This document shows, piece after piece, positions 8,386-57,912 of a stretch of 64,000 nt of DNA. Within the stretch, counting starts at the first letter, position 1, and the number at the start of each line of letters is the position of its first letter. This DNA comes from a plasmid. The translations under genes were made by a program, and so were the position numbers. Location of the stretch: sequence record NZ_CP025192.1, one strand, 5' to 3'. The notes beneath the pieces were generated by a model. It worked only from the letters and a program-made list of their open reading frames with translations, was not told the origin of the DNA and did not search any database.

Positions 8386-8628
8386 ATGGATCCTGTTCAG
8401 CGACCTCCCTACCGCCCCTTCTGCGATACGCCGGCCGACCAGCCCGACGAGCGCCGCAAGGGACACATCTCCCAGGATCCGTTCGAACATTTCTGCGAGG
8501 AGTGCGGCGCCTGGGGCAGCTTCGGCTTCAGGATCGACAGCGATCCCGCGCATCCCGGTGTCTGGTACTGTGGCCAGCATCGCCGCGTCGGAGAGGAGCG
8601 CCTGGCTCGGGTGCGGCGGGGCGGATAG
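8386..8628 (+). CDS. Small Cys-containing hypothetical protein.
   Basis: 80 aa beginning MDPVQRPPYRPFCDTPAD and containing ...FCEECGAW...WYCGQH, which could form a zinc ribbon. Confidence 0.3.
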   Translation: MDPVQRPPYRPFCDTPADQPDERRKGHISQDPFEHFCEECGAWGSFGFRIDSDPAHPGVWYCGQHRRVGEERLARVRRGG

Positions 8629-9255: not shown

Positions 9256-9290
9256 TTATTGTTGAATATCAGCGTGGATCAGGTATTATC
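9256..9290 (+). promoter_or_regulatory. Near-consensus sigma70-like promoter (TTGAAT-N16-TATTAT) that shares an AT-rich motif with 7619-7650.
   Basis: The sequence ttttattgTTGAATatcagcgtggatcaggTATTATcc is read directly. Confidence 0.4.
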
Positions 9291-9383
9291 CAAATGCGGC
9301 CAACGAGGGCCGCAACAACAAGTCGCCCCCGCCGGTGGTACCAACACCAGACGGGGGCTGACCCGAAACAGGATAAGGCTCAT

Positions 9384-10068
9384 CATGTCCCAGGCTTCCG
9401 GCAACATCGCTCCCGCCACCACCGAGAACAAGGGCGCCGACGCCGCCCGCCCCACCAGGGCGCGCACCACTGCCAAGACTGGCAGGCCCGCCGCGGCGCA
9501 GCCGACGCAGGCTCCCGCTCGCCGCACCCAGGCCAACCGCCAGGGCATCACCCTCGCCGATGCGGGCCGTCTGGCCCCCACCCACGACATGATGAGCAAG
9601 GTCTATCGCGTCTTCGGCCTGGAGCCGGTGGACGTGGACGGCATCGCCACCGCGACCGAAACCAGCCTCATCCAGCAGTCCGAGGACCTGCGTTCCGCCC
9701 TCAGCGACAAGGCCATGGAGATGCATTTCCAGCGCGTCGTCGGCGCCTATGTCGGCAGCGCCTTCGGGGCCGCGCAGTTCTTCGACAGCAAGCGCGCCAC
9801 CGCCCGCGACATGGCCAGCAAGATGAACGACAACCGGGACGAGGACCGCGACGGGCCGAGCGGTTTCGAGAGCAAGGTTGAGCGCGCCCAGAGCTTCGCC
9901 GCCGATATGGCCCGCCAGAGCTACGCCCTCCTTGCCGCAGCCGAGGGCGCCGTTCGCGCCTTCGAGGAAATCACCGGCAACGCCTGGAAGCCCTACGTCG
10001 CCAGCACCCCCGAGAGCCAGGGTCTCGGACGCCAGGCCGCCCAGGCCCGCGCCTCCGCCTTCGACTGA
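9384..10068 (+). CDS. Hypothetical protein that is acidic and helical; this looks typical of the accessory genes on conjugative elements.
   Basis: A GGATAAGG-like SD lies before the ATG. 228 aa with natural composition and no motif recognised. Confidence 0.45.
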
Positions 10069-10400
10069 CACCACCGGGCGGGGGCTTCGGCCTCCGCCCT
10101 TCCCTCCGGCGGCGGCCAGGGGGGCGCCGCCCTCCGGGCTCTGCCCCCCTGGACCCCCCGCAGCCTCATCCCTTGCCGCTCACCCTTGCCGCGCCGCCGG
10201 TTTGCGGTCGGCGCTTCGCGCCGGAGCTTTCTCGCCGCGGCGCCTTCGGCGCCACTCCTTGGCCCTGGCTGAAACCGTGTCCGGGCCATGCCCCCTCCGG
10301 CATGTCAGGGCCGCCGCGTTCGCAACGCCGCTTCGCGACGCCGCGCCCGCCGCAGCCCGGACACGCCAGGGCGCATGGCATCCCACCGTTCCCGCGCGCC

Positions 10401-30079: not shown

Positions 30080-30190
30080 TGTTGATTTGCACTGAGAGCT
30101 GACCCGGGAAGGGTCAGAGTTTCCGCCGAGAAATGACCCGTGTCTGTTCACCATCCCGACCGGCTGGTCGGGATTATCGGAGTGATCGAC

Positions 30191-31714
30191 ATGGAGTTGT
30201 TGAGCGTGATCCGCCGGTGGCACTACCGGGATCGCCTCCCGATCCGCGAGATCGAGCGGCGGACGGGTCTGTCACGGAACACGATCCGCAAGTACCTGCG
30301 GTCGGACGCCGTGGAGGTGCGGTTCAAGGTTCCCGAGCGTCCGAGCCGCCTGGACCCGTTTGCCGACAAACTCTCGGAATGGCTGAGGGTGGAGGCGGGC
30401 AAGGGTCGCAAGGGGCGCCGGACGGTGCGGCGGATCCACGCGGACCTGGTGGCCCTGGGTTATGGCGGATCCTACGGCCGGGTCGCAGCCTTCGTCCGGC
30501 GCTGGCAGGCGAGACGGGAGGTGGCGCAGCGGACCACCGGGCGCGGGGTGTTCGTACCGCTCGCCTTTCAGCCCGGCGAGGCCTTCCAGTTCGACTGGAG
30601 CGAGGACTGGGCGACGGTGGGCGGCAAGCGGCTCAAGCTGCAGGCCGCCCATACCAAGCTGTCGCACAGCCGGGCCTTCGTGATCCGGGCCTACAAACTG
30701 CAAACCCACGAGATGCTGTTCGACGCTCTGGCCGAGGCATTCCGGGTGCTCGGCGGGGTGCCGCGTCGCGGCATCTTCGACAACATGCGCACGGCCGTGG
30801 ATCGCGTCGGCACGGGCAAGGTCCGGCAGGTCAACGCGCGGTTCCAGGCCATGGCCAGCCACTACCTGTTCGAGCCGACGTTCTGCAGTCCGGCCTCAGG
30901 GTGGGAGAAAGGTCAGGTCGAGAAAAACGTGCAGGACGCCCGGCGGCAGATCTGGCAGGTCATGCCGCCCTTCGCAGACCTGCCCGCCCTCAACGCGTGG
31001 CTGGAGGCCCGCTGCATCGAGCGCTGGGGCGAACTGTCCCACGGGGTGCTGCCGGGCAGCGTCGCCGAGGTCCACGCGCGGGAGAGGGCGAGCCTGATGC
31101 CGATGGGGCGGGCGTTCGACGGCTTCGTCGAGCACGCCAAGCGGGTGTCGCCGACCTGCCTCGTGCACTTCGAGAGCAACCGCTACAGCGTCCCCGCCTC
31201 GTTCGCCAACCGACCGGTGAGCCTGCGGGTCTATCCCGACCGCCTCGTCGTGGTGGCCGAGGGCCAGGTCGTGTGCGAGCACGCCCGGATCGTCGAGCGC
31301 TCGCACGACGTTCCCAGCCGCACCGTCTACGACTGGCGGCACTACCTGGCGGTGATCCAGCGCAAGCCGGGGGCGCTGCGCAACGGCGCACCCTTCGCCG
31401 AGCTGCCGGAGGCGTTCCGCAAGCTCCAGGCCCAGCTCCTCCGGCGGCCAGGAGGCGAGCGGGAGATGGTGGACATCCTCGCCCTGGTGCTGCAGCACGA
31501 CGAGGGGGCCGTGCTCTGCGCTGTGGAACTGGCCCTCGAGGATGGCGTCGCCACCAAGACCCACATCCTCAACATCCTGCACCGCCTGACCGACGGCACG
31601 AGCACGGCCGCGGCGATCGATGCACCCCAGGCCCTCGCCCTGAACCAGGAGCCGAGAGCCGACACCGGCCGCTACGACGCGCTGCGGACCCGCGAGGTGC
31701 GCCATGCGTCATGA
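30191..31714 (+). CDS. istA: IS21-family transposase IstA.
   Basis: N-terminal HTH ([33 protein letters not shown]) and DDE integrase core. Confidence 0.9.
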
Positions 31715-32483
31715 TCCCGCCAGTGCCGCCCTCGTGGTCATGCTGCGTGGGCTCAAGATGTTCGGTATGGCCCAGGCAGTCACCGAGCTGGTGGAGCAGG
31801 GCGCGCCGGCGTTCGAGGCGGCGGTTCCCATCCTCTCGCAGTTGCTCAAGGCCGAGATGGCCGAGCGCGAGGTGCGCTCGATCGCCTACCACACCAAGTC
31901 GGCCAGGTTTCCAGCCTACAAGGATCTGGCGGGCTTCGATTTCGCGGCGAGCGAGGTCAACGAGGCCACGGTGCGGCAGCTGCACCAGGGCGAGTTCACC
32001 GAGCAGGCGGACAACGTCGTACTGATCGGCGGGCCCGGCACCGGCAAGACCCACCTCGCCACGGCACTGGGTGTCCAGGCCATCGAGCACGGCCGCAAAA
32101 AGGTCCGGTTCTATTCCACGGTCGACCTGGTCAATGCACTGGAACAGGAAAAGACCGCGAACAAGGCCGGGCAACTCGCCGACCGCCTGCTCCGCCTCGA
32201 CCTCGTCATCCTCGACGAGCTCGGCTACCTGCCGTTCAGCGCCTCGGGCGGTGCGCTGCTGTTCCACCTGCTCAGCAAGCTCTACGAGCGCACCAGCGTC
32301 GTGATCACCACCAACCTGAGTTTCAGCGAGTGGGGTGGCGTGTTCGGCGACGCCAAGATGACGACGGCCTTGCTCGACCGGCTCACACACCACTGCCACA
32401 TCCTGGAAACCGGCAACGACAGTTTCCGGTTCAGGAGCAGTTCGGCCGAACCCAGGAACAGGAGAGCTAAAACACCCGCTTGA
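31704..32483 (+). CDS. istB: IS21-family helper ATPase IstB.
   Basis: Walker [19 protein letters not shown] and Walker [10 protein letters not shown]. Confidence 0.9.
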
Positions 32484-43314: not shown

Positions 43315-44765
43315 TCGGCAGGTTCGGCCGAGAGGGGCACCTTCTGGTCAGCGGTCCCGCAGCACGGCGTGTCCTCAGCCAATTCAGGCTTGAGCGGGCA
43401 GCCCGCCCCCTGGATTGTCGTCGGCGTGCAGCATGCGGCTTCGGCATCGAGCGCTGCCACCACGCGGCTGCTGCTGCACACGCCGGTCTGCGGCAGGTCC
43501 AGCTCCACCCGACGTGCGGCCTCCATGTCACCCACGAGGAAGGCGGCAATGGAGCGCACCTGCTCGTAGCCGGTGGCCAGCAGGAAGGTGGGCGCACGGC
43601 CGTAGCTGGCCATCCCGGCAAGGAAAAGTCCCGTATCGGGCTGCTGGAGTTCGTGGGCACCGTGAGGCCGAACGGTGCCGCAGGAGTGCAGGTTGGGGTC
43701 GATGAGCGGGGCCAGCACGCGCGGGCATTCCAGCGCCGGGTCCAGGTCGAGGCGGACCTCACCGAGAATGCCGAGGTCGGGCCGCAAGCCGGTGGCGACC
43801 ACCATCTCGTCGGCTTCCGCCGTCTCCCCCTCGAGGCTCATGACCTGCAGGGAACCGTCGGCAGCCTGGCCGACCTCGTCCACCGAAAAGGGCGCGAGCA
43901 GCTCTACGGTGCCGCTTTCGACGAGGTGGTGCAGCTGCTGACCCAGGGCGCCGCGCTCCGGCAGCTGGTCGGCCGCGCCGCCGCCGTAAGCCCGCGTCAG
44001 GTCCGCGCTGCGGACCGCCCACAGGACGGTGGTGCCCGGCGCCTGCTCAGCCAAGCTGGCGAGGTCGAGCAGGGTGCCGACGGCCGAGTGGCCCGAGCCG
44101 ACGACAAGGACGCGTCGCCCGGCGTAGCGACCGCGGTCGGCGCCGAGGACGTCGGGCATGCCATAGCGGATGCGGTCGGCGGCCCGATGCTCGCCGATGG
44201 CGGGCAGGCCGGAGGCGCCCGCCGGGTTGGGATGTCCCCAAGTGCCGGTGGCTACGATGACGGACTGGACCAGGAGGCGGTCCTCCATGCCCTCAGCCTG
44301 GAACCTGACCTCGAAGGGCTGCCGCTCACGACCGGCGTCGCGAACCTTGCCAGCGCGCTGTCGGGCAACTCCGGTCACCCGGGTGTTCAGACGGAGGCGG
44401 CCAGCCATCTCCGGCAGGGCAGCGAGAGGTGCCAGGTAGTCCTCGACGAGGTCACGGCCGGTGGGGAACGCCTCGGCATCGGGCGCCGTCCATCCATGCC
44501 GCTCCAGGAGCGTGCGGCACGCCCGGTCCACGTTGTAACGCCACGGGGAAAACGTGTGAACGTGACCCCATCCCAGCGGCGCCGTGCCGACCGAGGGACC
44601 AACCTCGAACACCAGCGGCTCCAGGCCGCGCTCCAGCAGGTGCGCTGCGGCGGCCAAGCCAACCGGGCCGCCGCCGATGATGGCGATGGGCAGCGTTGCG
44701 GGGCTGGGGAAGCCCTCAGGGCCCCTGCTCTGAGGGGCAGGCTTGGCAGAGCAACAGGAGCTCAT
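43311..44765 (-). CDS. FAD/NAD(P)-binding oxidoreductase (flavin monooxygenase-like) with Cys-Cys motifs at both termini.
   Basis: Rossmann GxGxxG (AIIGGGPVGLAAAAHLL) and a second GxGxxG/A (VLVVGSGHSAVG). N-terminal MSSCCSAKP. C-terminal CSSSRV...ACCTPTT...CPLKP...PCCGTAD. Confidence 0.65.
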   Translation of the reverse strand: MSSCCSAKPAPQSRGPEGFPSPATLPIAIIGGGPVGLAAAAHLLERGLEPLVFEVGPSVGTAPLGWGHVHTFSPWRYNVDRACRTLLERHGWTAPDAEAFPTGRDLVEDYLAPLAALPEMAGRLRLNTRVTGVARQRAGKVRDAGRERQPFEVRFQAEGMEDRLLVQSVIVATGTWGHPNPAGASGLPAIGEHRAADRIRYGMPDVLGADRGRYAGRRVLVVGSGHSAVGTLLDLASLAEQAPGTTVLWAVRSADLTRAYGGGAADQLPERGALGQQLHHLVESGTVELLAPFSVDEVGQAADGSLQVMSLEGETAEADEMVVATGLRPDLGILGEVRLDLDPALECPRVLAPLIDPNLHSCGTVRPHGAHELQQPDTGLFLAGMASYGRAPTFLLATGYEQVRSIAAFLVGDMEAARRVELDLPQTGVCSSSRVVAALDAEAACCTPTTIQGAGCPLKPELAEDTPCCGTADQKVPLSAEPAE

Positions 44766-44820
44766 CTGACGGTTTCCTTCCTTATGCCTCGGTGGGCGAT
44801 GTATAGAGGCAAGCTGATGG

Positions 44821-45243
44821 TCAGCATTGGCATGCACCCTTGGCCCTGCCGCGAGCCTTGGCGGCACGGCCGGTCTCGGTCAGGGCGGTGGTGGCGTCCA
44901 TCCAGGCCCCTAAACCAACGCGGAATGCCTCCCGCCCCTTGTCGGTCAGGGTGTAGACCTTGCGCTCACGGCCGGAGACGACCTCGGCTTCCGATGTCAG
45001 GTAGCCGCCCTGCTCGAACTCCCGGAGCGTCGGATACAGGGCGCCCTCAGAGGGCGAGCAGCAGCCGTTCGTGGTCCGCTCCACCGCGCGCGCGATGTCG
45101 TAGCCATGAGCCGGGCCGTCGTGCAGCACCTGCAGGACGAAGAAGCGACTGAGCGCCATCTTGATGGTCCCGGCCCAGTAGCCTCGGTCCGTGAAGTCCG
45201 GCGGGGGACGAGGCACGGCACGAAGGATGGGCTGCTGTGACAT
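44821..45243 (-). CDS. PadR-family transcriptional regulator with Cys-rich segments.
   Basis: PadR wHTH (VLQVLHDGPAHGYDIARAVE...GALYPTLREFEQGGYL...GRERKVYTLTDKG). A vicinal CC in NGCCSPSEG and C-terminal GACQC. Confidence 0.8.
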   Translation of the reverse strand: MSQQPILRAVPRPPPDFTDRGYWAGTIKMALSRFFVLQVLHDGPAHGYDIARAVERTTNGCCSPSEGALYPTLREFEQGGYLTSEAEVVSGRERKVYTLTDKGREAFRVGLGAWMDATTALTETGRAAKARGRAKGACQC

Positions 45244-45896
45244 GGAGGAAGGCTATGCATCGATGGGCGATGCGTCAACAACAATGAAGGAGCGGCTCGG
45301 GGCATGTCTCAACCCACGCCCACAAGGTCCCAGACGCTAAGCCCGGCCGCCCTGGAAATCTGGCAGATGCCGCTGGCCCGCGCCCTCGGCCCACTCCGGC
45401 TCTCCGGCGGCACCGGCGGCGTCGGCATCAGCCTGATGCAGCGCCGGGTCGTGGGGTGGCGCCCGTTGCCCGACTGGGTCGACGGCACCGCCTGCGCGGC
45501 CGTCATGCGGCACGCCCTGCGGGAGCACCTCGATGCCGCGGGGCGCCTCGGGCTCTGGCGGCGGGGCTCGCAGGCAAGGACTCGATCCCGGCAAGGATTC
45601 GGCGGCGGGGCAGGGCAGGGCAGGGGGCCGCGACGTCCCGGCTGACTCACCGAATTTCTCGGCGCGGGAAGGGCGGGCATCTGGTAATCCCGGGCGCACA
45701 GCAGCAGGCCGGTCGGGCCGGGCCGCGTCGGCGCCATCCCGGCCGCCGCGCGGCTTGCGCTGCGACGGTGAGCCGGAGGCGGGTGCAGTCAAGTGGTCAA
45801 GGTCGTCTCCTTCGCGTCAGCCATGAAGTCCATCGAGGGTGATCCTCCTTGGTTTCCGTGGACACCCAGAGGCAAGCTTTGAGCTGGAGGTGTTCA

Positions 45897-46241
45897 ATGG
45901 ATCAGCAGGCGACGAGGGCCAAGCCACGTTCCTATACGGAGGACTACAAGCGCCAGGTCGTGGATATGGTGGTCGGTGGCGGGCGCACGCCGACGGCGGT
46001 GGCGGGCGAGGTCGGCCTGCACCCGACGCTGCTGTGCCGGTGGGTGCGCCAGTATAGCGCCGGCGGTGGCAAGACCGAGGTGCCGCGGCCTGCAGCTGCC
46101 ACCTCCCTCAAGCCCTTGCCGGTCCCGACGGCCGACCAGGCTGCCGAGATCGCGCGGCTGCGGCGCGAGTGCGACCGGCTCCGCATGGAGCGAGACATTT
46201 TAAAAAAGTCCATTTCGATCTTCGCGGGACCACTGAGATGA
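45897..46241 (+). CDS. IS3-family transposase OrfA (HTH).
   Basis: MDQQATRAKPRSYTEDYKRQVV... The leucine-zipper-like C-terminus ends at the frameshift site TTTTAAAAAAG. Confidence 0.8.
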   Translation: MDQQATRAKPRSYTEDYKRQVVDMVVGGGRTPTAVAGEVGLHPTLLCRWVRQYSAGGGKTEVPRPAAATSLKPLPVPTADQAAEIARLRRECDRLRMERDILKKSISIFAGPLR

Positions 46242-46644
46242 AGTTTCGTGTGGTCGAGGACTGCCGCGATGTCTGGGCGGTCCAGCCGTTGTGCCGTGTG
46301 CTGGGGATCTCGACCGCCGGCTACTACGCTTGGCGGTCGCGGCCGGATAGCAAGCGCGCCGTCGAGGATTGTGCCCTGCTGGCCGACATCCGCCAGGCCC
46401 ATGCCAACAGCGGTGGCCGTTACGGCAGTCCCCGTGTGTATGCCACCTTGCGGGCGCAGGGGCGACAGGTTGGACGTGGACGGATCGAGCGCCTGATGCG
46501 GCGGCATGGCGTGCGCGGCCTTGTCGCCCCGCACCGCCGCGTGCAAACCACCGACAGCCGCCACGCCTTCCCGGTCGCTCCCAATCTGCTGGAACGCAAG
46601 TTCTCCACCACCAGCAGGCCGAACCAAGTCTGGCTGGCAGACCT
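46203..46644 (+). pseudogene. IS3-family OrfB, 5' part, interrupted by an IS insertion.
   Basis: The integrase N-terminus ends at ...RPNQVWLAD and the reading frame then runs into the IR of the inserted IS. Confidence 0.75.
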
Positions 46645-46683
46645 TGAACCGCCCCGGGATTGCCGGAGGCCATTGGGCTTAAA

Positions 46684-47589
46684 TTATGCGGCCATGGGAG
46701 TGCCGTCCAGCATGGCGTAGTAGCGTTCTTCGGCTTCGGCAGGTGGTATATTGCCGATGGGCGCGAGAAGCCGGCGGTTGTTGAACCAGTCCACCCATTC
46801 CAGCGTGGCGTATTCGACGGCCTCAAAGGATCGCCACGGACCACGCCGGTGGATCGCCTCGGCCTTGTAAAGGCCGTTGATCGTCTCTGCCAAAGCGTTG
46901 TCGTAGCTGTCGCCTACACTGCCCACCGATGGCTCGATCCCGGCTTCGGCAAGGCGCTCGGTATATTTGATCGAGACATACTGGCTGCCGCGGTCGCTGT
47001 GATGGATCAGGCCACCACGACGGACAGGACGCCGATCATGGATCGCCTGCTCCAGGGCATCCAGCACGAAGCTGGCATGCGCCGTCCTGCTTACCCGCCA
47101 GCCCACGATATAGCGGGCGTAGACGTCGATCACGAAGGCCACGTAGACGAACCCTGACCAAGTCGCGACATAGGTGAAGTCCGACACCCACAGCATGTTC
47201 GGCGCCGGGGCGTGGAACTGCCGGTTCACCTGGTCGAGCGGGCAAGGCGCGGCCTTGTCGCTCATCGTCGTGCGCACCGGCTTGCCGCGGATCACGCCCT
47301 GCAAGCCCAGCTCGCGCATCAGCCGCTCCACCGTACATCGGGCTATGTCGAAGCCTTCGCGCCGCATCTGTCGCCAAACCTTGCGCACGCCGTAGACGCC
47401 GAAGTTCTCGGTAAAAACCCGCATCACCTCTGGCTTCAGGGCCCGATCACGCTGGGCACGCGACGATAAGCGCGAGGGATCGCGCCGCTGCGCCAGGTGC
47501 TCATGGTAGGTGGATGGGGCGATCGGCAGAACCCGGCAGATCGGCTCGACCCCATAGTCACCGCGATACTCGTCGATGAACGCGATCAT
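46684..47589 (-). CDS. IS3-family transposase OrfB (DDE integrase) of IS B.
   Basis: [29 protein letters not shown]...[11 protein letters not shown] (DDE core). Confidence 0.9.
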
Positions 47590-47912
47590 CGCTTGAACGG
47601 GCGGTCGAGCTCCGCCTGGGCAAAATACGCAGATGCCTTGCGCAGGATCTCGTTGGCCTGGCGCAGCTCGCGGTTCTCGCGCTCCAGCGCCTTGAGCTTG
47701 TCAGCCACATCGGTGGGCACACCAGCTCGTTTGCCGCTGTTCACCTCGGCCTTCTTCACCCACTCCAGCAGCGTGTGCCCCGAACAGCCGAACTTCTCAG
47801 CAATGGATGTGATTGCGGCCCAGCGGGACGGATGGTCGCCTTCGTGATCCAGCACCATGCGGACCGCCCGTTCACGAACCTCCGGTGCAAACTTGTTCGT
47901 CGTCTTGCTCAT
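47586..47912 (-). CDS. IS3-family transposase OrfA of IS B.
   Basis: [27 protein letters not shown]... with a leucine-zipper-like C-terminus. Overlaps orfB by 4 nt. Confidence 0.9.
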
Positions 47913-47965
47913 AGTAGACCCTTCCTCTCAGGAGTTGGGGCCTCCGACAATCCCGGGGCGGTTCA

Positions 47966-48434
47966 CCTGACCTACATTCCGACAGCTGAAGGTTGGCTGT
48001 ACATGGCCGCCATCATGGACCTGCACACCCGTAAGATCGTGGGCTGGTCCATGCGCGACCATCTTAGGGCCGAGCTGGCGACCTCGGCGCTGCTGATGGC
48101 CATCCAGCGCCAGCGTCCCAGTGCCGGCCTGATCCAACATTCCGACCGCGGCGTCCAATATGCCTGCGGTGACTACCAGGCGGCGCTGACCAAAGCAGCC
48201 ATCATCCCGTCGATGAGCCGGCGGGCCAACCCGCTGGACAACGCGCCAATGGAGAGCTTCTTCCATACGCTGAAAACCGAGCTGGTGCATCACCGGGCCT
48301 ATGCCACCAGGGATGAGGCCAAGCGCGACCTGTTCTCCTACGTCGAGGGCTTCTACAACCGACAGCGCCTTCATTCGGCCCTGGACTACCGCACGCCAGA
48401 CCAGGCAGAACGGCAGGCAGCAAACGTAGCGTAA
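47966..48434 (+). pseudogene. IS3-family OrfB, 3' part, of IS A.
   Basis: LTYIPTAEGWLYMAAIMDLHTRKIVGW...HSDRGVQYA...NAPMESFF (DDE integrase core), continuing the frame broken at 46644. Confidence 0.75.
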
Positions 48435-48655
48435 CCCGTCCACAGAAGTCGTGGAGGATCACCCCGAAGCCCGAGCTTTCCTGTCTCAGTTCAACGAGTT
48501 GCTGGTTGTTCAAGGCCGACTACTTCACCGACCTGCTGACCCGCCTCGTCAATGGCTGGCCCAACAGCCGCATCGACGAACTCATGCCGTGGTGCTGGGC
48601 CGCCAAAAACGGCAGTTGATCTCAAATACAGCCAGCATGGGTCTGTAGGCCTCGC

Positions 48656-48955
48656 TTACGGTATAGGCGTCGTCAACGCCCTTTGAGCCTCAACAACCGG
48701 CAGCGCGGCAGGAGACCTCTCCGCCGCCGCTGGAGGCAGTCGCGGTGTAGCCGGTCCGGGTGCGATCCCCGCGAGGAGATCCCGGCGCCAGGTGTAGAGC
48801 AGGCCCGTCCCGATCCCCTCACGCTGCGCGACCTCCTTGGCAACCACGCCGGGCTGCATCGCCTCCGCGACGATCCGCAATTTCTGCTCCGCGCTCCAGC
48901 GCCGACGCCGCTCACCGCGCGTCACCACCTCTACGAACTCGCTCCGAGCACTCAT
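48656..48955 (-). pseudogene. IS66-family orf1 (tnpA-like) remnant.
   Basis: ERRRRWSAEQKLRIVAEAMQPGVVAKEVAQREGIGTGLLYTWRRDL is the IS66 orf1 signature. No IS66 orf2 or orf3 follows, so this is probably a relic. Confidence 0.45.
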
Positions 48956-48982
48956 ACGATCACTCGTATGAGTGCTCGGAGC
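48940..48982. repeat. Perfect palindrome with 20-bp arms (GCTCCGAGCACTCATACGA-tca-CTCGTATGAGTGCTCGGAGC).
   Basis: Read directly. It lies at the junction between the IS66 orf1 remnant and the integrase fragment. Confidence 0.7.
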
Positions 48983-49074
48983 CGTGCTCTCCACCTTGTC
49001 TCCGTCCACCGAACGCCCCCTCACCAGGAGAGCAAACCTCGGAGGCTCAGCCAGGACCCTCAACCATGGGGTTC

Positions 49075-49436
49075 AGCCGACGGATACCGCCGAGGCGCTG
49101 CATGCCTATATCCAGACTGCCGGGATCGCTGACGACCGCAGGGGCTGGCTGTTCCGCACAGCGCCAGGCCACAAGGCAACCGAGCTCACCAATCAGCCGC
49201 TGGCCCAGGCTGACGCGTGGCGCATGTTGCGCCGCCGTGCTGTCGCCGCCGGCATCACAGCGCCGATCGGCAACCACACCTTCCGCGCGACCAGCATCAC
49301 CGCCTATCTCGCGAACGGCGGTGCTCTTGAGCATGCGCAGGAAATGGCAGCGCATGAGAGCCCGCGCACCACCAAGCTCTACAACCGCACCAAGGAGCGG
49401 CTGACGCAGGACGAGGTAGAGCGGATCAGACTGTGA
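49075..49436 (+). pseudogene. C-terminal fragment of a tyrosine recombinase/integrase.
   Basis: GNHTFRATSITAYLANGGALEHAQEMAAHESPRTTKLYNRT matches the H-x-x-R ... Y catalytic C-terminus of phage-type integrases. The N-terminal two-thirds are absent. Confidence 0.6.
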
Positions 49437-49474
49437 TGCGTCTCGATTCTCGTACTATTCACCATAAGGAGACC

Positions 49475-50164
49475 TCAAGCAGATTTCAGGTACTTTCGTC
49501 CACTTAGGGCGCTGTATATCTCACCTTGCATGAAAGCCATGATGGCTAAAGTCGTCGCGAGATAGTCAGATAACGCCTGATCGCTTGGGATCAACAATCT
49601 GTCGCCATGCGAAATCGCGTTCCTAATACCCAATAACTTGCTGATATTCGAACGGTGGACTTCGATAGAAAGGCAATCTAGTCCGAGTTGAAAAAGCAAT
49701 TTTTTAAGAACATCCGGCGACAAGTTGGATTTTGTGTCAACTACCTGATCCGGAATATCCACTTTATGCGCCGTAATTCTCTCATAAGACTCAACAAACA
49801 TCTGCTCGCGAGCTGATAGGTGCAATTGTGTGTCGTCCGGCATGCGATTGCGAAAAGTTTCGTGTTTGCTATTCGGGTCCCTTAACGCGGCAAAAACCTT
49901 ATGCAGAGTGGCAGCTGCAACTGGATAGCTAGCCTCGGCACAGGTCAACCCTAAAGCATTGAGCGCCGATGTATAGGAGAGAAGAGAAAATTTACAAAAT
50001 CCTTCAAGATGCGCGTACATTAGCAGAATGAGCGAGCGTTTAAGCATCGCCTGCTCATTTGCGGATGCTGCCGCCTGGATTAAGCGGTCTATCAGACGCA
50101 TTTCAGCCTCGCGACTGGCTCGGTCAGCTTCCAGGTCCTCAAAAACAGACTCAGGGGAACGCAT
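49475..50164 (-). CDS. HEPN-like protein (Rx4H motif), last gene of the methyltransferase-DUF262-HEPN operon.
   Basis: 229 aa, all-helical composition. GIRNAISHGDR fits the HEPN Rx4-6H motif. It overlaps the DUF262 gene by 14 nt. Low-GC codon usage. Confidence 0.5.
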   Translation of the reverse strand: MRSPESVFEDLEADRASREAEMRLIDRLIQAAASANEQAMLKRSLILLMYAHLEGFCKFSLLSYTSALNALGLTCAEASYPVAAATLHKVFAALRDPNSKHETFRNRMPDDTQLHLSAREQMFVESYERITAHKVDIPDQVVDTKSNLSPDVLKKLLFQLGLDCLSIEVHRSNISKLLGIRNAISHGDRLLIPSDQALSDYLATTLAIMAFMQGEIYSALSGRKYLKSA

Positions 50165-51287
50165 GGATGAGCCGTTGCCTTACAAAATTGATCCGATCAT
50201 TCAGCGGGCCAGGCGAGTTTTTCCCACCGCCAGTTGTTTGTCTGACAAATTCGCTGTCAAGCTTAATGCTTTTAAGGCAGTCAGCAATGGCGGCCATTAC
50301 GACGTGGTCTGTCGGGTCAAGTTTGTCGATGACGCTCTGAAGAGCAACTGTAATTGCCTCGAAATGGTACACACTGAAGCCCGACGCCAGATCGGTTCCA
50401 CTCTTATTCCTGAATGCAAAGGACTTGTCGCCTAGAGAGGCCTTCAAAACCGCAAAGGTCTTGCGAAAGTTGGCTTCCTCTCCAGCAAAGTCAAAACTGT
50501 GTGCGCGGCTTGGATCGGCGACGTCCTCCATATACTCTGTCAGAAAATCAGATACTTCGTGTTTGAATTTATCCAGCCGATTCTTGAGCGCGAAAAATCT
50601 TAAGACCAGTTCCTGATCGATCCCTGAAAGAAGCCGCGCCTCCGTCAAGGCGCTTGTGCAGACCTGAAAATCATCAACCCCGCTCATATTGATGATGAAA
50701 TCGGGAAACTCAGTACTGAGCATGCGAATTGTGCAATTACGAATCTGCTGCTCCGACAGGCCTTCTCCGCCTGTGTTAAGCCGCTTGAACATGTGATATT
50801 TGAAATGCGGATCAGCGCCCCTGCGAACAACCTCCACTCGAATGAATGCGCGCTTCAACCTGATCTGCATGGAGGTTGGCAGATCGTCAAAGGTGAGATC
50901 GTTCAGCGCGTGCACGATGTCACAATCTACAAGTTTCAGCTTGTCGCCCTTTTGAACAGGACGATCGAGATGAGGGGCGTCCAACGCGCCTCGTAAATGC
51001 AAGTAGGATGAAATCCGTTGCAGTCCGTCGATCAGCTGATAGCGGCCTTCCTCCTCCTCGATTACAAAGATCGGCGGCACAGGCATTTCTAGAATCAGCG
51101 ACTCTATGAGACGCGAACGCTGTCCTTCGGTCCACCTAAAGAGCCTCTGATAGTCCGGGGTGATGTTGAGCTCGCCTGCCTCGGCCATGTCGAGAAGTTC
51201 ATTGAAAGAAAGATCAAGTGCCTGAGTGCTGGCGCGTTTTAGCGTTCCCGCGACCTCCTCGATAAGGCGCGCGCTTGAGCCTGACAT
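50151..51287 (-). CDS. DUF262 (GmrSD N-terminal / ParB-like) domain protein.
   Basis: ITPDYQRLFRWTEGQRSRLIESLILEMPVPPIFVIEEEEGRYQLIDGLQRISS matches the DUF262 DGQQR-type signature. No DUF1524/His-Me finger motif is seen in the C-terminal half. Confidence 0.75.
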   Translation of the reverse strand: MSGSSARLIEEVAGTLKRASTQALDLSFNELLDMAEAGELNITPDYQRLFRWTEGQRSRLIESLILEMPVPPIFVIEEEEGRYQLIDGLQRISSYLHLRGALDAPHLDRPVQKGDKLKLVDCDIVHALNDLTFDDLPTSMQIRLKRAFIRVEVVRRGADPHFKYHMFKRLNTGGEGLSEQQIRNCTIRMLSTEFPDFIINMSGVDDFQVCTSALTEARLLSGIDQELVLRFFALKNRLDKFKHEVSDFLTEYMEDVADPSRAHSFDFAGEEANFRKTFAVLKASLGDKSFAFRNKSGTDLASGFSVYHFEAITVALQSVIDKLDPTDHVVMAAIADCLKSIKLDSEFVRQTTGGGKNSPGPLNDRINFVRQRLIHAFP

Positions 51288-51289
51288 CG

Positions 51290-52591
51290 CTAACGATCTC
51301 CACGTTGAAAACAGAGGACGGACTCAACTGTTCCGAGCCTGTTTGTGCGACCTGTAGCATGCGGATGAATCGCCGCCATAGTTCGATGCACTGTAAAATC
51401 TTCTCGTCGCATTAACTGCAGGTTCCGACTGGCTGCCATCTCTACCAGAACGGCAGGAAGATTATTGTGAATGTCTTTGTAGTGCGAATCCTGTACTACA
51501 AAAATCGCTGCTGCACCGTCCTTAAGAACACTGGAAATCCTGGAGATAGACCGGCTCATTTTATCGAAGTAGTCGAGATGCGTCTTTAAGTAATATCCTG
51601 CAGATGACTTGGACGGGTGAAGTCTAACTTTTTCTAAGAAGTCGCGGCAGGTGGTGCCCCACTGGTTATCGTATTCGATAGGTTGCGATGGGACGCGAGT
51701 TGAACCAATCATCCGCCGGCCAAGGGCATGCACATCCGACCGAATAAGGCCATTCAATACAGCCAATTCAATCTGAGTGGCCACTGCGTAGTCTATCCGA
51801 GTGCAGTAAGGTGGTGAAGTGAGCACAAAATCTACTGTCGCCTCCCCCGCGAAAAACGAAGTGCTATCTGCTAGTCGAGCTTCTGCGAAGGTGCATTTCA
51901 GAGGATGATCGTCTGCACACTTTGAAAGCGCTTCTGCCATGCCTCTAATCTGGGATAAAAAGGTGCTCCGCAGCTCGTCATCGCGGACATGAACGAGCTC
52001 CTCGGCAGATTTCGCCCTACGCCACCATGTCGGATTGGAAGATCGGAAGGTGACGGACGCACTTCGTGCCACAGCAAATAGTGCGACGTAGAAGGCTGAA
52101 GCGATGCTTGATAGACGATCAAGATCAGCGCCCCGTTCCGATATTGTGAACCGACCCACGAGGCTGCTTGAAATCGCCTGCTCGATTGCACGGACATGGC
52201 GCGCCGTCTCGTGATCGAACCAACTCAGCAGAGGATCATCCGCCGGAAGAGTCACTGGAACATCGCAATGATCAATTAGCTTCTGACCAAGTGGCTCAAG
52301 GCTGTCTGCTTCGCTTGGAGGTAGAAGCCTTGCTCGCGCAACAGCAATCATAACCGGATTGAGATCGAGACCAATCCCAAGGTGACCGTGATTCCGAGCT
52401 GCATAAATTGTTGTCCCGCTTCCGTTCCACGGATCCAGGACAACAGCACGTGGCGCTAGGCGTGCAGAGCTGATTATGTCGGAAGCAAAAGCCTCCGGAT
52501 AACCGGCGTAGTAGGGAAAAAACCCCTCCCATCCAACTTGTAGGCGCCGATTTCGCTTGGGAGACGGGATTGCGAGACTGTCGAACATCAT
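51290..52591 (-). CDS. DNA methyltransferase (N6-adenine or N4-cytosine) with motif I upstream of motif IV.
   Basis: AdoMet motif VLDPWNGSGTT near the N-terminus and catalytic LTSPPY about 220 aa downstream. A 3-nt gap separates it from the DUF262 gene. Confidence 0.75.
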   Translation of the reverse strand: MMFDSLAIPSPKRNRRLQVGWEGFFPYYAGYPEAFASDIISSARLAPRAVVLDPWNGSGTTIYAARNHGHLGIGLDLNPVMIAVARARLLPPSEADSLEPLGQKLIDHCDVPVTLPADDPLLSWFDHETARHVRAIEQAISSSLVGRFTISERGADLDRLSSIASAFYVALFAVARSASVTFRSSNPTWWRRAKSAEELVHVRDDELRSTFLSQIRGMAEALSKCADDHPLKCTFAEARLADSTSFFAGEATVDFVLTSPPYCTRIDYAVATQIELAVLNGLIRSDVHALGRRMIGSTRVPSQPIEYDNQWGTTCRDFLEKVRLHPSKSSAGYYLKTHLDYFDKMSRSISRISSVLKDGAAAIFVVQDSHYKDIHNNLPAVLVEMAASRNLQLMRREDFTVHRTMAAIHPHATGRTNRLGTVESVLCFQRGDR

Positions 52592-52643
52592 GTCTGCGCA
52601 GTCTGTAGGAGGTACGCAGGGGTCAAGTCTGCCTTGCTCTCCA

Positions 52644-52961
52644 TCATGCGACCGTTGTCAGCCCGTTCTTGGCGACGAGCGAGAGAAGCTTAAGGGACGG
52701 GCCTTGCGGGCGCTTCTCGCCGCGCTCCCACTGGCTGACGAGGCCCGTCGTGACGTTGAGATAGCGCGCGAACACGGCTTGGCTGGCCCCTTCCCGTTCA
52801 CGGAGAGCACGGATTTCTTCAGGTGTGAGCGGGCGCACGGGCGTCAGGCAGGCGTCGTCGAACTGGCGCATGGTCTGCTTGTCCATGAGCCCGGCATTGT
52901 GGAGGCCCTCGGCGGTCTCGTGGATCGAGGCCATGGCCCTGCTGCGATACTGCTTACTCAT
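52644..52961 (-). CDS. higA: HigA-type XRE-family HTH antitoxin.
   Basis: C-terminal HTH ARYLNVTTGLVSQWERGEKRPQGPSLKLLSLV (the toxin-first HigA2-like arrangement). 8-nt overlap with the upstream toxin gene. Confidence 0.7.
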   Translation of the reverse strand: MSKQYRSRAMASIHETAEGLHNAGLMDKQTMRQFDDACLTPVRPLTPEEIRALREREGASQAVFARYLNVTTGLVSQWERGEKRPQGPSLKLLSLVAKNGLTTVA

Positions 52962-53328
52962 CCTCCGTTACCTCCGTCAGCACGCCGGCGCCGATCGCTG
53001 TCGCGAGCGCCGCATCGTCATAAGCCAGCAACTGCGCCGCCAGCAGCTTGAAAGCGGCCAGCTCGTCATCGCGGATGTTGTCCTGCTCGTTCTTGGCGAA
53101 GCCATGCACGAAGAAGGACCGCTCCCCAACCCGGAAGAGGATGATCGTGCGGAACCCGCCCGACTTCCCTGCTCCCTCGCGGGCAATGCGCTGCTTGATG
53201 ACCCCGCCGCCCAGATCGGCGTCGATCAGTCCCCGCCCTGCCCTGCCGACCGCCTCGCGCAACGCCGCGTCGCTCAACCGCGCCTTCCTGGCGAACCGCG
53301 CAAACGGCTTGTTCTTGAATATCCTCAC
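52954..53328 (-). CDS. higB: RelE/ParE-superfamily toxin (HigB-like; toxin gene first).
   Basis: 124 aa. Its family and gene order match HigB2-like toxins that are paired with C-terminal-HTH antitoxins. Confidence 0.65.
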   Translation of the reverse strand: MRIFKNKPFARFARKARLSDAALREAVGRAGRGLIDADLGGGVIKQRIAREGAGKSGGFRTIILFRVGERSFFVHGFAKNEQDNIRDDELAAFKLLAAQLLAYDDAALATAIGAGVLTEVTEDE

Positions 53329-53658: not shown

Positions 53659-53905
53659 CTGGACTCCTGCGGGGCAGTCCAGTGGCCCTGGACTCTTGCG
53701 GGACCCGAGTCGTCGGTCTCTCGGAGACATGGCGGAGCCTCGTCCACAGGGCAAACCTGGGCTTTTGCGGGTATCCCCAGGATTCATGCGGGATACCCTC
53801 GTGTAGAAATCAATGACTTATGAAGTTATCTACTGGGTTCCTGCGGGGCATAACTAATAGAGTTTCTAATAATCTTCAAATAGCTCGTCCCGCAGAAGTC
53901 CAGGT
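53659..53905. repeat. Iteron array: five direct copies of CTGG(A/G)(C/T)TC(C/T)TGCGGG plus one inverted copy, with an AT-rich segment (about 53800-53885). Candidate oriV.
   Basis: Copies at 53659, 53688, 53757, 53779 and 53833, with an inverted copy at 53887-53905. The AT-rich stretch gtgtagaaatcaatgacttatgaagttatctac...taactaatagagtttctaataatcttcaaatag lies in otherwise GC-rich DNA, directly upstream of the rep-like gene. Confidence 0.6.
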
Positions 53906-53950: not shown

Positions 53951-54934
53951 ATGGCATCTGTGGAGGACGAGGCGATGGGGACAGTCCATCGACTCATTGA
54001 GGAGCACGGGCGGCAAGGGGCATTGAAAATGGCTCCAACCGACGGAGACCGCCGCGCCATCGAGGCCGCCATCCAGTACATGGCCGACGAGGACGCCGGG
54101 ATCGGCTTCCTCTACAGCGGTTGGTGCCAAGCCGCCCTACCCCACAAGAAGCTCGCTGACGATGCGGCCTGGAAGATCGAGACCGACCGGGTCGCGCTCA
54201 TCGTCGAGCCAGGGCGTCGCAACATCCCCGGTGGAGGCATAGAATGGGTCGGCGCACCTTACGGCTCGCGAGCCCGCCTCATCTTGCTGTTTCTACAGAG
54301 CGAGGCGCTCCGGACCAATTCCCGCGACATCGAACTCGGGAGAAGCCTACACATGTGGCTCGGGCGCCTCGGGATCCCGATCGGCGGCAAGAGCTTCAAG
54401 GACGTCCGGGAACAGGCCGAGCGCCTCTCTAGGTGCCGGATGACCTTCCACATCATCGCAGGCGACCGGGCTGGGCTGGTCAACCAGAACATTGTAGACA
54501 CTGCGATGTTCGTGCAGGAACCGTCGGCCGAGGGCCAGGGTTCCCTGTTTGTCGAAACAGCGCGCCTCTCGGAGACCTTTTTCGAGCAACTCAGGAAGCA
54601 CCCGGTGCCCCTAGAAGAGTCGGCGATACGGGCGATCTCAAATAACTCGCAAGCTCTCGACATCTACTGCTGGCTCGCATACCGGCTCCACGTTCTTCCG
54701 CCCGGGAGGCCGGTCTCGGTGTCCTGGCGGGCACTGTTCGGGCAGTTCGGGGCCTCCTACAAGCGCATCGATCACTGGAAAGAGCGCTTCGTGGACAGCC
54801 TGAAGATCGCGACTGCGGTCTACCCACACGCAAGCATCGAAGTGGCACCCGAGGGCCTCGTGTTGCGCCAGTCCCGCCCGCCGGTGGCGCCTCGCCTCGT
54901 CTCTGGCGGATCTCCCGCAAGAGCCCAAGGATAA
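53951..54934 (+). CDS. Replication initiator protein (RepA/RPA-like).
   Basis: 327 aa. The iteron array and AT-rich element lie upstream. Partial resemblance to alphaproteobacterial replication initiator protein A (FLYSGWCQAALPHKKL, LDIYCWLAYRL). The family assignment needs an HMM check. Confidence 0.5.
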   Translation: MASVEDEAMGTVHRLIEEHGRQGALKMAPTDGDRRAIEAAIQYMADEDAGIGFLYSGWCQAALPHKKLADDAAWKIETDRVALIVEPGRRNIPGGGIEWVGAPYGSRARLILLFLQSEALRTNSRDIELGRSLHMWLGRLGIPIGGKSFKDVREQAERLSRCRMTFHIIAGDRAGLVNQNIVDTAMFVQEPSAEGQGSLFVETARLSETFFEQLRKHPVPLEESAIRAISNNSQALDIYCWLAYRLHVLPPGRPVSVSWRALFGQFGASYKRIDHWKERFVDSLKIATAVYPHASIEVAPEGLVLRQSRPPVAPRLVSGGSPARAQG

Positions 54935-55391: not shown

Positions 55392-56644
55392 ATGCTGGTC
55401 GTGGAGACAGTGGCAAAGATCCGGCGCCTGCACCGGGTGCAGGGCAAGTCGATCAAGGCGATCTGTCGTGAGCTCGGGATTTCGCGAAAGGTGGTCCGGA
55501 AGGTTCTGCGGTCCGGGGAGACGGAATTCCGCTACAGCCGGGCGCGGCAGCCGCAGCCCAAGCTGGGGCCGTGGCAGGCCGAGCTGGAGCGCCTGCTGGA
55601 GGCGAACGAGGCGCGGCCGCGGCGCGAGCGGCTGACGCTGGTGCGGGTCTACGAGACGCTGCGTGAGCTGGGGTACGAGGGCGGCTACGACGCGGTCCGG
55701 CGACATGCGCGGGGGTGGCAGGCGTCACGGGCGACGGCGGTGGCAGCAGCCTTCGTGCCGCTGAGCTTCGCGCCGGGCGAGGCATACCAGTTCGATTGGA
55801 GCCACGAGGTCGTGCTGATCGGCGGCACGACAGTGACCGTCAAAGTCGCGCATGTGAGGCTGTGCCACAGCCGGATGCTGTTCGTCCGCGCTTATCCGCG
55901 CGAGACGCAAGAGATGGTGTTTGACGCTCATGACCGGGCGTTCGCCTTCTTTCGCGGTACCTGCACGCGGGGCATCTACGACAACATGCGCACGGCGGTG
56001 GACGCGATCCTGGTGGGACGGGATCGCGCCTACAACCGGCGTTTCCTGCGCATGTGCAGCCACTACCTGGTCGAGCCGGTGGCCTGCACTCCGGCCTCGG
56101 GCTGGGAGAAAGGTCAGGTCGAGAACCAGGTCGGGCTGGTGCGGGAGCGGTTCTTTACGCCGCGGCTGCGGGTGAGGAGTTACGAGGAGCTGAACGCCCT
56201 CCTGCTGGAGCGGTGCGTGTCCCATGCCCGGGCCAATCGGCATCCGGAGCAGAGGGAGCGGACCGTCTGGGAGGCGTTCGAGGCAGAGCGGCCAAGCCTG
56301 GTGCCTTACGCTGGGCGGTTCGACGGGTTCCATGCCGTGCCTGCCGCGGTATCCAAGACCTGCCTGGTGCGGTTCGACAACAACAAGTACTCGGTGATGG
56401 CGAGCGCGGTGGGGCGGCCGGTCGAGATCCGGGCCTATGCCGAGCGGATCGAGTTGCGCCAGGACGGCCGGGTGGTGGGCGAGCACCGGCGCGTGTTCGG
56501 CCGGGACCAGACGGTGTTCGACCCCTGGCACTACGTGCCCGTGCTGGCGCGCAAACCTGGAGCGCTGCGCAACGGGGCACCGTTCAAGGACTGGCTGCTC
56601 CCCAGTGCACTGGAACGGGTCCGCCGCAAGCTGGCCACAGCCAC
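55392..56644 (+). pseudogene. istA: IS21-family istA, 5' part, interrupted by an IS3-family insertion.
   Basis: MLVVETVAKIRRLHRVQGKSIKAICRELGISRKVVRKVL...RVRRKLATA and then the frame runs into the TGAACC IR of the inserted IS. Confidence 0.8.
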
Positions 56645-56683
56645 TGAACCGCCCCGGGTATGCCGGAGGCTGATTGGTTTGGG

Positions 56684-57586
56684 TTAGGCTGCCAGGGCGG
56701 GCTCCTCAAGCCTGGCGTAGTAGCGCGCCTCTGCTTCGGCCGGTGGCATGTTGCCGATCGGCTCGAGGAGGCGGCGGTGGTTGAACCAGTCGACCCACTC
56801 GAGGGTGGCATATTCGACGGCCTCGAGGGATCGCCACGGGCCACGGCGCCGGATGACCTCGGTCTTGAACAGGCCGATGACGGTCTCGGCGAGGGCGTTG
56901 TCGTAGCTGTCGCCGACGCTGCCGACCGAGGGCTCGATCCCGGCCTCGAGCAGGCGTTCCGTGTACCGAATGCTGAGGTACTGCCCACCCCTGTCGCTAT
57001 GATGGGTCAGGCCGCCCTTCGCCGGGCGGCGGTCATGCAGGGCTTGTTCCAGGGCATCGAGGACAAAGCCCGCATGCGCCGTCCGCGAGACCCGCCAGCC
57101 GACGATGCGGCGGGCGAAGACGTCGATGACGAAGGCGGCATAGACGAAGCCCTGCCAGGTCGCGACGTAGGTGAAGTCCGACACCCACAGCATGTCCGGT
57201 CGCGGCGCCCGGAACTGGCGGTTCACCTTGTCCGCCGGGCAGGGCGTGGCCTTGTCGGCGATCGTGGTCCTGACCTCCTTGCCGCGGACGACGCCGCGCA
57301 GGCCCATGCTCCGCATCAGGCGTTCCACCGTGCAGCGGGCCACCGCGATGCCCTCCCGGCCGAGCTGCCGCCAGACCTTGCGGGCGCCGTAGACCCCGAA
57401 GTTGGCCGCATGCACCTGCCGGATCCCCTCCATGAGCACCAGGTCCTGCCGGGCGCGCGGCGAGGTCTTGGCCGGATCACCACGCCGGGCAACATGGGCG
57501 TGGTAGGTCGACGGCGCGATCGGCAGCACCCTGCAGATCGGCTCGACACCGTAGACCCCGCGGTGATCGTCGATGAAGGCGATCAT
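56684..57586 (-). CDS. IS3-family transposase OrfB of IS C.
   Basis: About 75% identical by eye to the OrfB at 46684-47589 ([29 protein letters not shown]...). Confidence 0.9.
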
Positions 57587-57912
57587 GGCTTCGAGCGGCG
57601 GTCGAGCTCCGCCACCGCGAAATAGGCCGACGCCTTGCGCAGGATCTCATTGGCCTGGCGCAGCTCGCGAACCTCGCGTTCCAGAGCCTTGATCCGCTCC
57701 CCCTCCGCACTCGTCGGCCCAGGCCGCAGGCCCCGGTCGCGCTCAGCCTGCCTTACCCAGCCGCGCAGAGTCTCCGTCGTGCAGCCGATCTTGGCCGCGA
57801 TCGAGCCGATCGCCGCCCACTGCGAGGCGTGGTCGCCTCCGTGCTCCAGCACCATCCGCACCGCCCGTTCCCGGACCTCAGGCGAATACCGGTTCGACGT
57901 CTTCTTCGTCAT
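57583..57912 (-). CDS. IS3-family transposase OrfA of IS C.
   Basis: [28 protein letters not shown]... Overlaps orfB by 4 nt. Confidence 0.9.

Follow-up and report, generated by a model that had tools for sequence, protein, structure and literature searches.

An operon that joins a HEPN ribonuclease (RNase) of the MAE_28990 family to a ParB-fold protein and a DNA methylase was listed in Table 1 of the survey by Anantharaman, Makarova, Burroughs, Koonin & Aravind 2013 (Biol Direct 8:15; PMC3710099), and the same three components are encoded together on a Roseomonas mucosa plasmid, in the stretch of record NZ_CP025192.1 that was analysed here (64,000 nt, referred to throughout as the window). 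The window operon specifies, in this order, a DNA methyltransferase (MTase), a DUF262 protein and a predicted HEPN RNase, which are referred to below as the trio or the cassette. The 2013 entry is a single table line drawn from comparative genomics, in which the operon is unnamed, the ParB protein is taken as the nuclease and the HEPN protein as a back-up; its authors reasoned, by analogy with PrrC, that HEPN RNases linked to restriction-modification (R-M) systems provide a second line of defence (PMC3710099). The two operons share a MAE_28990/RiboL-PSP HEPN protein with an Rx4H motif, a ParB-fold (DUF262) protein and a DNA methylase, all within one operon, and no structural difference sets them apart when the Microcystis MAE_28990 locus is compared by the description in that paper only. 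The window HEPN protein belongs to a family with a conserved Rx4-6H motif, and ParB-fold and methylase genes accompany it in the same operon across taxa. Judged by its sequence, the window trio belongs to the methylase-linked clade to which the 2013 survey drew attention.

A first-pass annotation of the window had presented these genes as a candidate novel restriction-like defence system. The claim of novelty fails because the trio was described in 2013 (PMC3710099) and its two-gene DUF262 plus HEPN core, in the form of PD-T4-2, was shown to be anti-phage in 2022 (PMC9519451); RefSeq, moreover, already names the HEPN gene, the three products being entered as 'DNA methyltransferase', 'DUF262 domain-containing protein' and 'MAE_28990/MAE_18760 family HEPN-like nuclease'. 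For this window the outcome is a correct annotation and not a discovery. The same annotation would have been overturned by a named system holding all three genes, and among the named defence systems (PADLOC models among others) none was found that contains them all. A mechanistic study of PD-T4-2, or of a system composed of DUF262, HEPN and methyltransferase, was not found in the literature searched.

The genes and motifs of the trio are as follows:

51290-52591, minus strand: DNA methyltransferase (MTase), 433 aa, first gene of the cassette (Pfam N6_N4_Mtase 1.4e-11, in two stretches)
52409-52435, minus strand: MTase motif I, DPWNGSGTT, N-terminal
51788-51820, minus strand: MTase motif IV, TSPPYCTRIDY, C-terminal (SPPY at 51806-51817)
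50151-51287, minus strand: DUF262 protein, 378 aa (Pfam GmrSD_N 5.4e-24)
51132-51149, minus strand: DUF262 motif QRxxxW, here QRLFRW
51015-51029, minus strand: DUF262 motif DGxQR, here DGLQR
50775-50789, minus strand: DUF262 motif FxxxN, here FKRLN
49475-50164, minus strand: predicted HEPN RNase, 229 aa (Pfam HEPN_RiboL-PSP 1.9e-24, HEPN_MAE_28990 2.6e-24)
49607-49624, minus strand: HEPN Rx4H, R181-N-A-I-S-H186, putative catalytic motif

The DUF262 and HEPN genes overlap by 14 nt and a gap of 2 nt separates the MTase gene from that of DUF262, so the tight coupling described in the first-pass annotation is real, the spacings it gave (-3, 3 and 14 nt) being slightly off. The five open reading frames (ORFs) that it claimed, these three and two upstream, are all present at their coordinates, the motifs it quoted (DPWNGSGTT, SPPY, DGLQR and RNAISH) translate where expected, and Pfam upholds its assignment of methyltransferase, DUF262 and HEPN Rx4H domains. 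Pfam likewise bears out the reported absence of a DUF1524/His-Me half from the DUF262 protein: GmrSD_N is the sole Pfam match and no DUF1524 occurs within the 378 aa.

Residue conservation was followed in about 75 homologues (73 for the MTase motifs), and pairwise identities in 96 complete trios. In the HEPN protein R181, N182, H186 and G187 are kept in at least 97% of the homologues at a median identity of 35%, the median for HEPN and MTase lying at 35-37%. The MTase sequences DPWNGSGTT, NPTWW, TSPPYCTRIDY and VVQDSYYKD are conserved, and the S-adenosylmethionine-binding motif I and SPPY (the DPWNGSGTT/SPPY-type motifs) are invariant, as would befit the DNA methyltransferase that is predicted from them; the protein is also matched by the PADLOC MTase_II models. 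Between motif I and motif IV lie some 150 aa (residues 95-250) which are hypervariable and presumed to be the target-recognition domain. This order of motifs, with motif I N-terminal and SPPY C-terminal, is permuted relative to the beta-class enzymes TTHA0409 (2zie) and CcrM, and resembles the layout of alpha-class amino-methyltransferases; the SPPY motif points to N4-cytosine or N6-adenine as the methylated base. The DUF262 protein consists of a ParB/Srx-like NTPase domain, in which QRxxxW, DGxQR and FxxxN are invariant among homologues, followed by a C-terminal helical domain of ParBDB type. Mean pairwise identity is highest for the DUF262 N-terminal domain (72%), and falls to 46% for both the DUF262 C-terminal domain and the MTase core, 39% for HEPN and 28% for the middle domain of the MTase. 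A sequence search of the PDB returned no solved relatives of the DUF262 or HEPN proteins, and the closest structures to the DUF262 NTPase domain are those of BrxU and SspE.

Comparison with named defence systems

PD-T4-2, identified in E. coli ECOR65, is made up of two coding sequences ('DUF262, HEPN'; 1.54 kb), assigned by HHpred to DUF262 (component A) and to HEPN_RiboL-PSP/HEPN_MAE_28990 (component B; PF18735/PF18737), and it protects its native E. coli host, as its deletion from ECOR65 increases plaquing of phage T4 (Vassallo et al. 2022; PMC9519451). The window locus resembles PD-T4-2 in that a DUF262 protein without DUF1524 is immediately followed by a small HEPN gene, and its DUF262 protein matches the PADLOC PD-T4-2_A model at 5.1e-35 (profile positions 41-355 of 363). 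A genuine PD-T4-2 recovered from IMG/VR (L180; component A 9e-156, component B 8e-52) aligned with the window DUF262 family over both domains at an hhalign probability of 99.6% and 27% identity, and by these matches the window protein is a distant homologue of PD-T4-2_A. The differences are that PD-T4-2 occupies a long, separate branch of the DUF262 tree at about 29-30% identity, that its HEPN protein has 169 aa as compared to 229 aa here with no detectable similarity between the two, and that it has no methylase, whereas an MTase gene is coupled upstream in the window and in 66 of 80 relatives. Owing to the different HEPN lineage and the presence of the methylase, the window locus is not PD-T4-2 in the strict sense. 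Two-gene pairs of DUF262 and 'MAE_28990 family HEPN', 27-33% identical, were also encountered in the P2-like phage P2_4B2 and on two plasmids, one an E. coli IncF plasmid and the other from B. cereus. In Peduovirus P2_4B2 (L181, record 30104-31979) the pair comprises a DUF262 protein of 381 aa and a 239-aa protein at the end of the phage genome, both annotated as hypothetical; by similarity this is a PD-T4-2-like pair in a P2 variable region.

The Menshen system (NsnABC; Millman 2022; Li et al. 2025) comprises NsnA, with a ParB-DUF262 and a ParBDB domain, the ATPase NsnB and the effector NsnC, and it is linked to R-M-like systems or methylases in 27.9% of cases, being methylase-adjacent in part of these; it was proposed that methylases near Menshen might work with DUF262 against non-modified genomes (Li et al. 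2025; PMC12065111). The architecture of NsnA, the logic of a sensor with a variable effector and the frequent proximity to methylases are common to Menshen and the trio, and the PADLOC NsnA model gave the best score of the window DUF262 protein (1.3e-54, profile positions 48-375 of 385), with the NsnA motifs invariant. Neither the NsnB ATPase nor the inPIN-nuclease NsnC is present, however: the gene after DUF262 is that of the 229-aa HEPN protein, directly coupled to it, the operon is without an ATPase, and where a third downstream gene would be expected a truncated integrase lies on the opposite strand. With an NsnA-like component alone, Menshen was ruled out.

In GmrSD, BrxU and SspE the DUF262 domain is a modification-sensing NTPase (PMC10952713, PMC12065111). 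These enzymes and the trio have in common an N-terminal DUF262 NTPase domain with QRxxxW, DGxQR and FxxxN, and SspE also partners a host DNA-modification module; the DUF1524 His-Me nuclease is theirs only, while here a separate predicted RNase occupies the place of effector, and the modification which SspABCD provides for SspE would here be the work of a single amino-methyltransferase. The PADLOC SspE and HEC-06 models match just the first 30-75 residues of the DUF262 protein. In the absence of DUF1524 a GmrSD-type (type IV) enzyme was ruled out, which agrees with the first-pass annotation on this point. A restriction endonuclease domain (PD-(D/E)XK, HNH, GIY-YIG or PLD) was not detected in the operon by Pfam, and the sole match labelled as a restriction endonuclease, PADLOC PDLC03418 at 1e-07, falls on the DUF262 domain itself. 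As in PrrC-EcoprrI and other R-M-linked HEPN anticodon nucleases, a HEPN RNase is embedded with a DNA-modification system, but there is here no hsdMSR and no ABC-ATPase domain on the HEPN protein, and DUF262 stands in the place of the regulator.

Conservation of the trio and of its methylase family

Relatives of the DUF262 protein numbered 4680 at E<1e-5 among the candidates scored. A scan of one genome per species, made with two strict peptide patterns, detected relatives in 260 species, and metagenomes yielded them in more than 470 stretches. Conservation was counted, by our own ORF and hidden Markov model analysis, in the best 80 loci of the 260-species scan (51-78% identical). The 80 loci come from at least 10 phyla; the order MTase, DUF262, HEPN on one strand was found in 66 of them, and the co-occurrence on which the first-pass proposal depended is thereby retained. 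The loci span Alpha-, Beta- and Gammaproteobacteria, delta-proteobacterial lineages (Thermodesulfobacteriota, Bdellovibrionales), Acidobacteriota, Bacteroidota, Bacillota, Planctomycetota, Cyanobacteria, Chloroflexota and Actinomycetota, with a DUF262/HEPN overlap that is mostly of 4 nt and an MTase/DUF262 spacing mostly of 0 to about 20 nt; gammaproteobacterial orthologues include those of Pseudomonas corrugata (L028) and Izhakiella (L047). Individual look-ups in Bradyrhizobium, 'Roseomonas aeriglobus' and Rhizobium all returned the same order amid unrelated flanks, and the best-anchored loci, whether from protein look-up or genome scan, reside on long chromosomal contigs, again with unrelated flanks. 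Among IMG/VR viral contigs, 12 of the 16 DUF262 matches carry the full trio. As the same genes recur in the same order in 66 of 80 loci and in many phyla, the arrangement is far beyond chance.

The non-canonical loci include contig ends, insertion sequence (IS) insertions (L019, L020), a convergent MTase gene (L035) and loci with other MTase genes nearby (L023, L043). In three of them (L059, L071 and L080) DUF262 and HEPN have no methylase within 6 kb. At L062:2335-5778, from one metagenome-assembled genome, a 1147-aa methylase of Eco57I/MmeI type takes the upstream slot in place of the usual enzyme of about 430 aa, and the methylase-free L059 is its sister locus. Since a different type of methylase has come to occupy the same position, a methylase appears to be functionally needed. 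In a neighbour-joining tree the pair-only loci L177 and L178 branch outside the trio clade, and the bona fide PD-T4-2 sits on a long branch.

The family was also surveyed from the side of the MTase, in 80 metagenomic loci with an MTase 38-54% identical to that of the window, and four arrangements were found downstream of it. The first is the orthologous DUF262 and HEPN pair. In the second, a different DUF262 protein of 349 aa (GmrSD_N 1.4e-18) is accompanied by a 216-aa protein with the invariant motif 'VR[HN]F[YF][AS]HR' (Rx4H-R), at L124:5267-6972, L135:5805-7489, L126:1573-3269, L133:5735-7452, L130:5767-7475 (minus strand) and L185:3361-5064. The 216-aa protein had no Pfam or PADLOC match and its hhalign comparison with the window HEPN family was negative; on account of its invariant R-x4-H-R motif it probably represents an unannotated HEPN-like effector family. 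The third arrangement (L088:3332-5457, L091) has a SIR2-like protein (Pfam SIR2_2 0.0028; PADLOC SIR2 1.2e-06) followed by a third kind of DUF262. The fourth is a four-gene cassette without DUF262, seen at L092, L096, L101, L107, L117, L119 and L143 (about 5800-10300 in each): its MTases, 50-53% identical, are the closest metagenomic relatives, and they are followed by proteins of about 286, 369 and 477 aa without Pfam match. The fourth protein is of P-loop type (GAGKT), and a RES-domain toxin pair precedes the cassette, which may be another methylase-linked system. A solitary MTase of the family, 50% identical, was observed on a phage-like IMG/VR contig (L184:4986-8176), where its neighbour on the other strand is a GpA-type terminase gene; this MTase may be a protective enzyme carried by a phage. 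Since the methylase and DUF262 keep recurring as partners and it is the toxic protein beside them that varies, HEPN is likely to be the effector, with DUF262 as the likely sensor or transducer.

Plasmid context of the cassette

The GC content of the trio, 48-52% with 0.49-0.59 at third codon positions (GC3), stands apart from the 67% of the whole window, and because of this composition inside a 67% GC replicon the trio is recognised as one foreign, horizontally mobile cassette. Two Roseomonas mucosa plasmids, NZ_CP025063.1 and CP099475.1, match the cassette segment at 100% identity, and the exact trio occurs in two plasmid records only, both of R. mucosa. Directly upstream lie two further genes:

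52644-52961, minus strand: helix-turn-helix (HTH) antitoxin-like gene (XRE/MqsA-C-like), 105 aa (Pfam HTH_3 1.3e-07)
52954-53328, minus strand: RelE/HigB-like toxin, 124 aa (Pfam RelE PF06296 2.4e-47)

These overlap each other by 8 nt, with 52 nt between the HTH and MTase genes, and RefSeq names them 'type II toxin-antitoxin system RelE/ParE family toxin' and 'DNA-binding transcriptional regulator'. A RelE-fold toxin gene that precedes and overlaps an HTH antitoxin gene is the arrangement of HigBA/RelE-type type II toxin-antitoxin (TA) pairs, and the toxin-first higB-higA pair that the first-pass annotation saw beside the operon does exist. It is without a role in the system, however: its GC content is 65% (GC3 0.81 for HTH and 0.85 for RelE, as against 0.49-0.59 for the trio), close to the 64% of repA, and no such pair adjoins the trio in the 83 other loci compared. 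Among the first 84 loci a RelE homologue occurs on the Roseomonas plasmid only and HTH homologues in two. Owing to its host-like composition and its absence from homologous loci, the RelE/HTH pair is an incidental neighbour outside the cassette, and was ruled out as a component of the system.

The replication gene repA (53951-54934) adjoins the locus, at about 0.6-1.4 kb from the cassette. At 53659-53850, within the 100-290 nt that precede repA, are three 18-nt direct repeats (CTGGACTCCTGCGGGGCA, 83-100% identical) that may represent iterons belonging to the origin of the plasmid. No att-like or inverted repeats delimiting the cassette were found at its flanks, and a scan for consensus promoters and terminators gave matches no more numerous than in shuffled sequence. 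The HEPN gene is followed directly, on the other strand, by a truncated tyrosine-recombinase/integrase ORF (48972-49436). At the 5' edge of this ORF is a perfect inverted repeat of 19 nt with 4 nt between its arms (48941-48982), which may be left over from the element that brought in the cassette. Two differing copies of an IS3-family element (46638-47776 and 56638-57773; 74-79% identical) lie in direct orientation at a distance of almost exactly 10 kb, and enclosed between them are the cassette, the TA pair, repA and an IS21-type transposase. The HV2 plasmid NZ_CP025063.1 carries at record positions 43360-50718 (L200:36961-44319) a type I R-M operon in which hsdM and hsdS are separated by an inserted RhuM-family gene; as the corresponding part of the window is without the same long ORFs, the window plasmid appears to be related to that of HV2 but rearranged.

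Proposed mode of action and its implications

The trio is probably a methylation-guided immune system. With a confidence that stops just short of even, we would go further and regard it as a self-contained mobile defence cassette in which discrimination of the R-M kind is combined with an RNA-targeting effector. The steps beyond domain identity are drawn from characterised DUF262 enzymes (GmrSD, BrxU and SspE) and HEPN RNases, and it is from these that we infer the role in defence, unmethylated DNA as the trigger, signalling from DUF262 to HEPN and RNA as the target. The MTase, encoded first in the operon, would methylate the DNA of the host, its hypervariable middle domain determining the target motif, while the DUF262 protein, with its ParB/Srx-type NTPase and its ParBDB DNA-binding domain, would act as a sensor of DNA modification state driven by nucleoside triphosphates. 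On unmodified incoming DNA it would activate the translationally coupled HEPN RNase (R181/H186), which as a dimer would cleave cellular and/or phage RNA, so that translation would halt and abortive infection or growth arrest would ensue. Where the cassette resides on a plasmid, as here beside repA, loss of the plasmid would be penalised in the same way. The R-M-like logic put forward in the first-pass annotation is plausible in light of the methylase replacement at L062 and of the association of the MTase family with other DUF262 proteins and effectors; a strictly lethal dependence on the methylase is disfavoured by the MTase-less pairs that are nested within the trio clade.

It is these nested pairs that head the points which count against such a mechanism. 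The MTase-less L059 and the pair L071 and L080 (84% identical to each other) fall inside the trio clade in the neighbour-joining tree, so the methylase has been lost at least twice within it, and the DUF262 and HEPN pair is accordingly not obligately lethal without a linked methylase; PD-T4-2, too, is functional without one. Nor does the HEPN protein tie the trio closely to that system, as no PADLOC model matched it at E<=0.1, PD-T4-2_B included, and hhalign of the HEPN family with the PD-T4-2_B of L180 gave a probability of 0.5%, leaving only the HEPN family at Pfam level in common. The PD-T4-2_B model also misses the HEPN partners in the pairs of the IncF plasmid, P2_4B2 and the B. cereus plasmid, and BLASTP of the window HEPN protein against the partners from the IncF plasmid and P2_4B2 returned no match. 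Correlation of pairwise divergence among the MTase core, the MTase target-recognition domain, the two DUF262 domains and HEPN indicated co-inheritance only and did not reveal which protein reads the motif, and no experiment on any member of the trio was found in the literature.

Methylation might conversely act as an activator and not as a shield, the host methyl mark loading or activating the DUF262 NTPase as phosphorothioate stimulates SspE, after which the DUF262-HEPN complex, once active, would attack the invader. Under this scheme PD-T4-2 and the MTase-less pairs could be active only by reading a different mark, and an RNase effector offers no obvious route from a sensor bound to host DNA to selectivity for the invader, which renders this licensing scheme unlikely. 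A small chance is also accorded to the scheme which follows the 2013 proposal, in which the ParB-like DUF262 protein would be a DNase acting on unmethylated DNA and HEPN a back-up RNase that the R-M proteins keep inactive until a phage inhibits them, by analogy with PrrC-EcoprrI. In GmrSD, BrxU and SspE, however, DUF262 is an NTPase sensor and cleavage falls to DUF1524, which is absent here, and the sister cassettes put other toxic effectors (SIR2-like) in the HEPN slot, which suggests that this slot belongs to a primary effector and not to an accessory.

The location of the cassette raises the prospect of plasmid addiction, whereby plasmid loss would dilute the methylase, leave sites unmodified and cause HEPN to kill segregants, any anti-phage effect being secondary. 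Type II R-M systems act as post-segregational killing modules in this manner, and the cassette is plasmid-borne, with repA close by and a RelE TA pair as its neighbour. We nevertheless consider addiction distinctly unlikely, as the best-anchored loci are on long chromosomal contigs with unrelated flanks, the 12 viral-contig matches in IMG/VR hold the full trio and plasmid records of the exact trio are limited to the two of R. mucosa. Defence genes do cluster, Menshen is methylase-adjacent in part of its R-M- or methylase-linked cases (PMC12065111) and MTase-less pairs of DUF262 and HEPN exist, all of which would accord with a solitary methylase that happens to share a defence island with an independent PD-T4-2-like pair and is functionally unconnected to it. 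Such a chance association is very improbable: the order and the near-zero spacing are kept in 66 of 80 loci, across many phyla and amid unrelated flanks, a foreign composition is shared by all three genes, in L062 a methylase of another kind fills the position of the usual one, and the methylase comes without a restriction endonuclease.

A methylation-gated RNase, if this is indeed how the trio operates, would join restriction-modification and abortive infection in a three-gene unit, and would provide a function for a large share of the proteins now annotated as 'DUF262 domain-containing protein' and 'MAE_28990 family HEPN'. It is possible, though we advance it with more doubt than conviction, that the trio stands for a distinct and very widespread class of R-M-like immunity, in which abortive infection is gated by methylation, DUF262 is the reader and the toxic effectors, none of them a DNase, are interchangeable: a HEPN RNase here, and a SIR2-like or second HEPN-like protein in the sister cassettes. 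The new leads are a methylase family common to several combinations of DUF262 and effector, a methylase that can be replaced, and its loss within a clade that has kept DUF262 and HEPN. Being abundant and conserved across phyla, the cassette is a good target for experiment.

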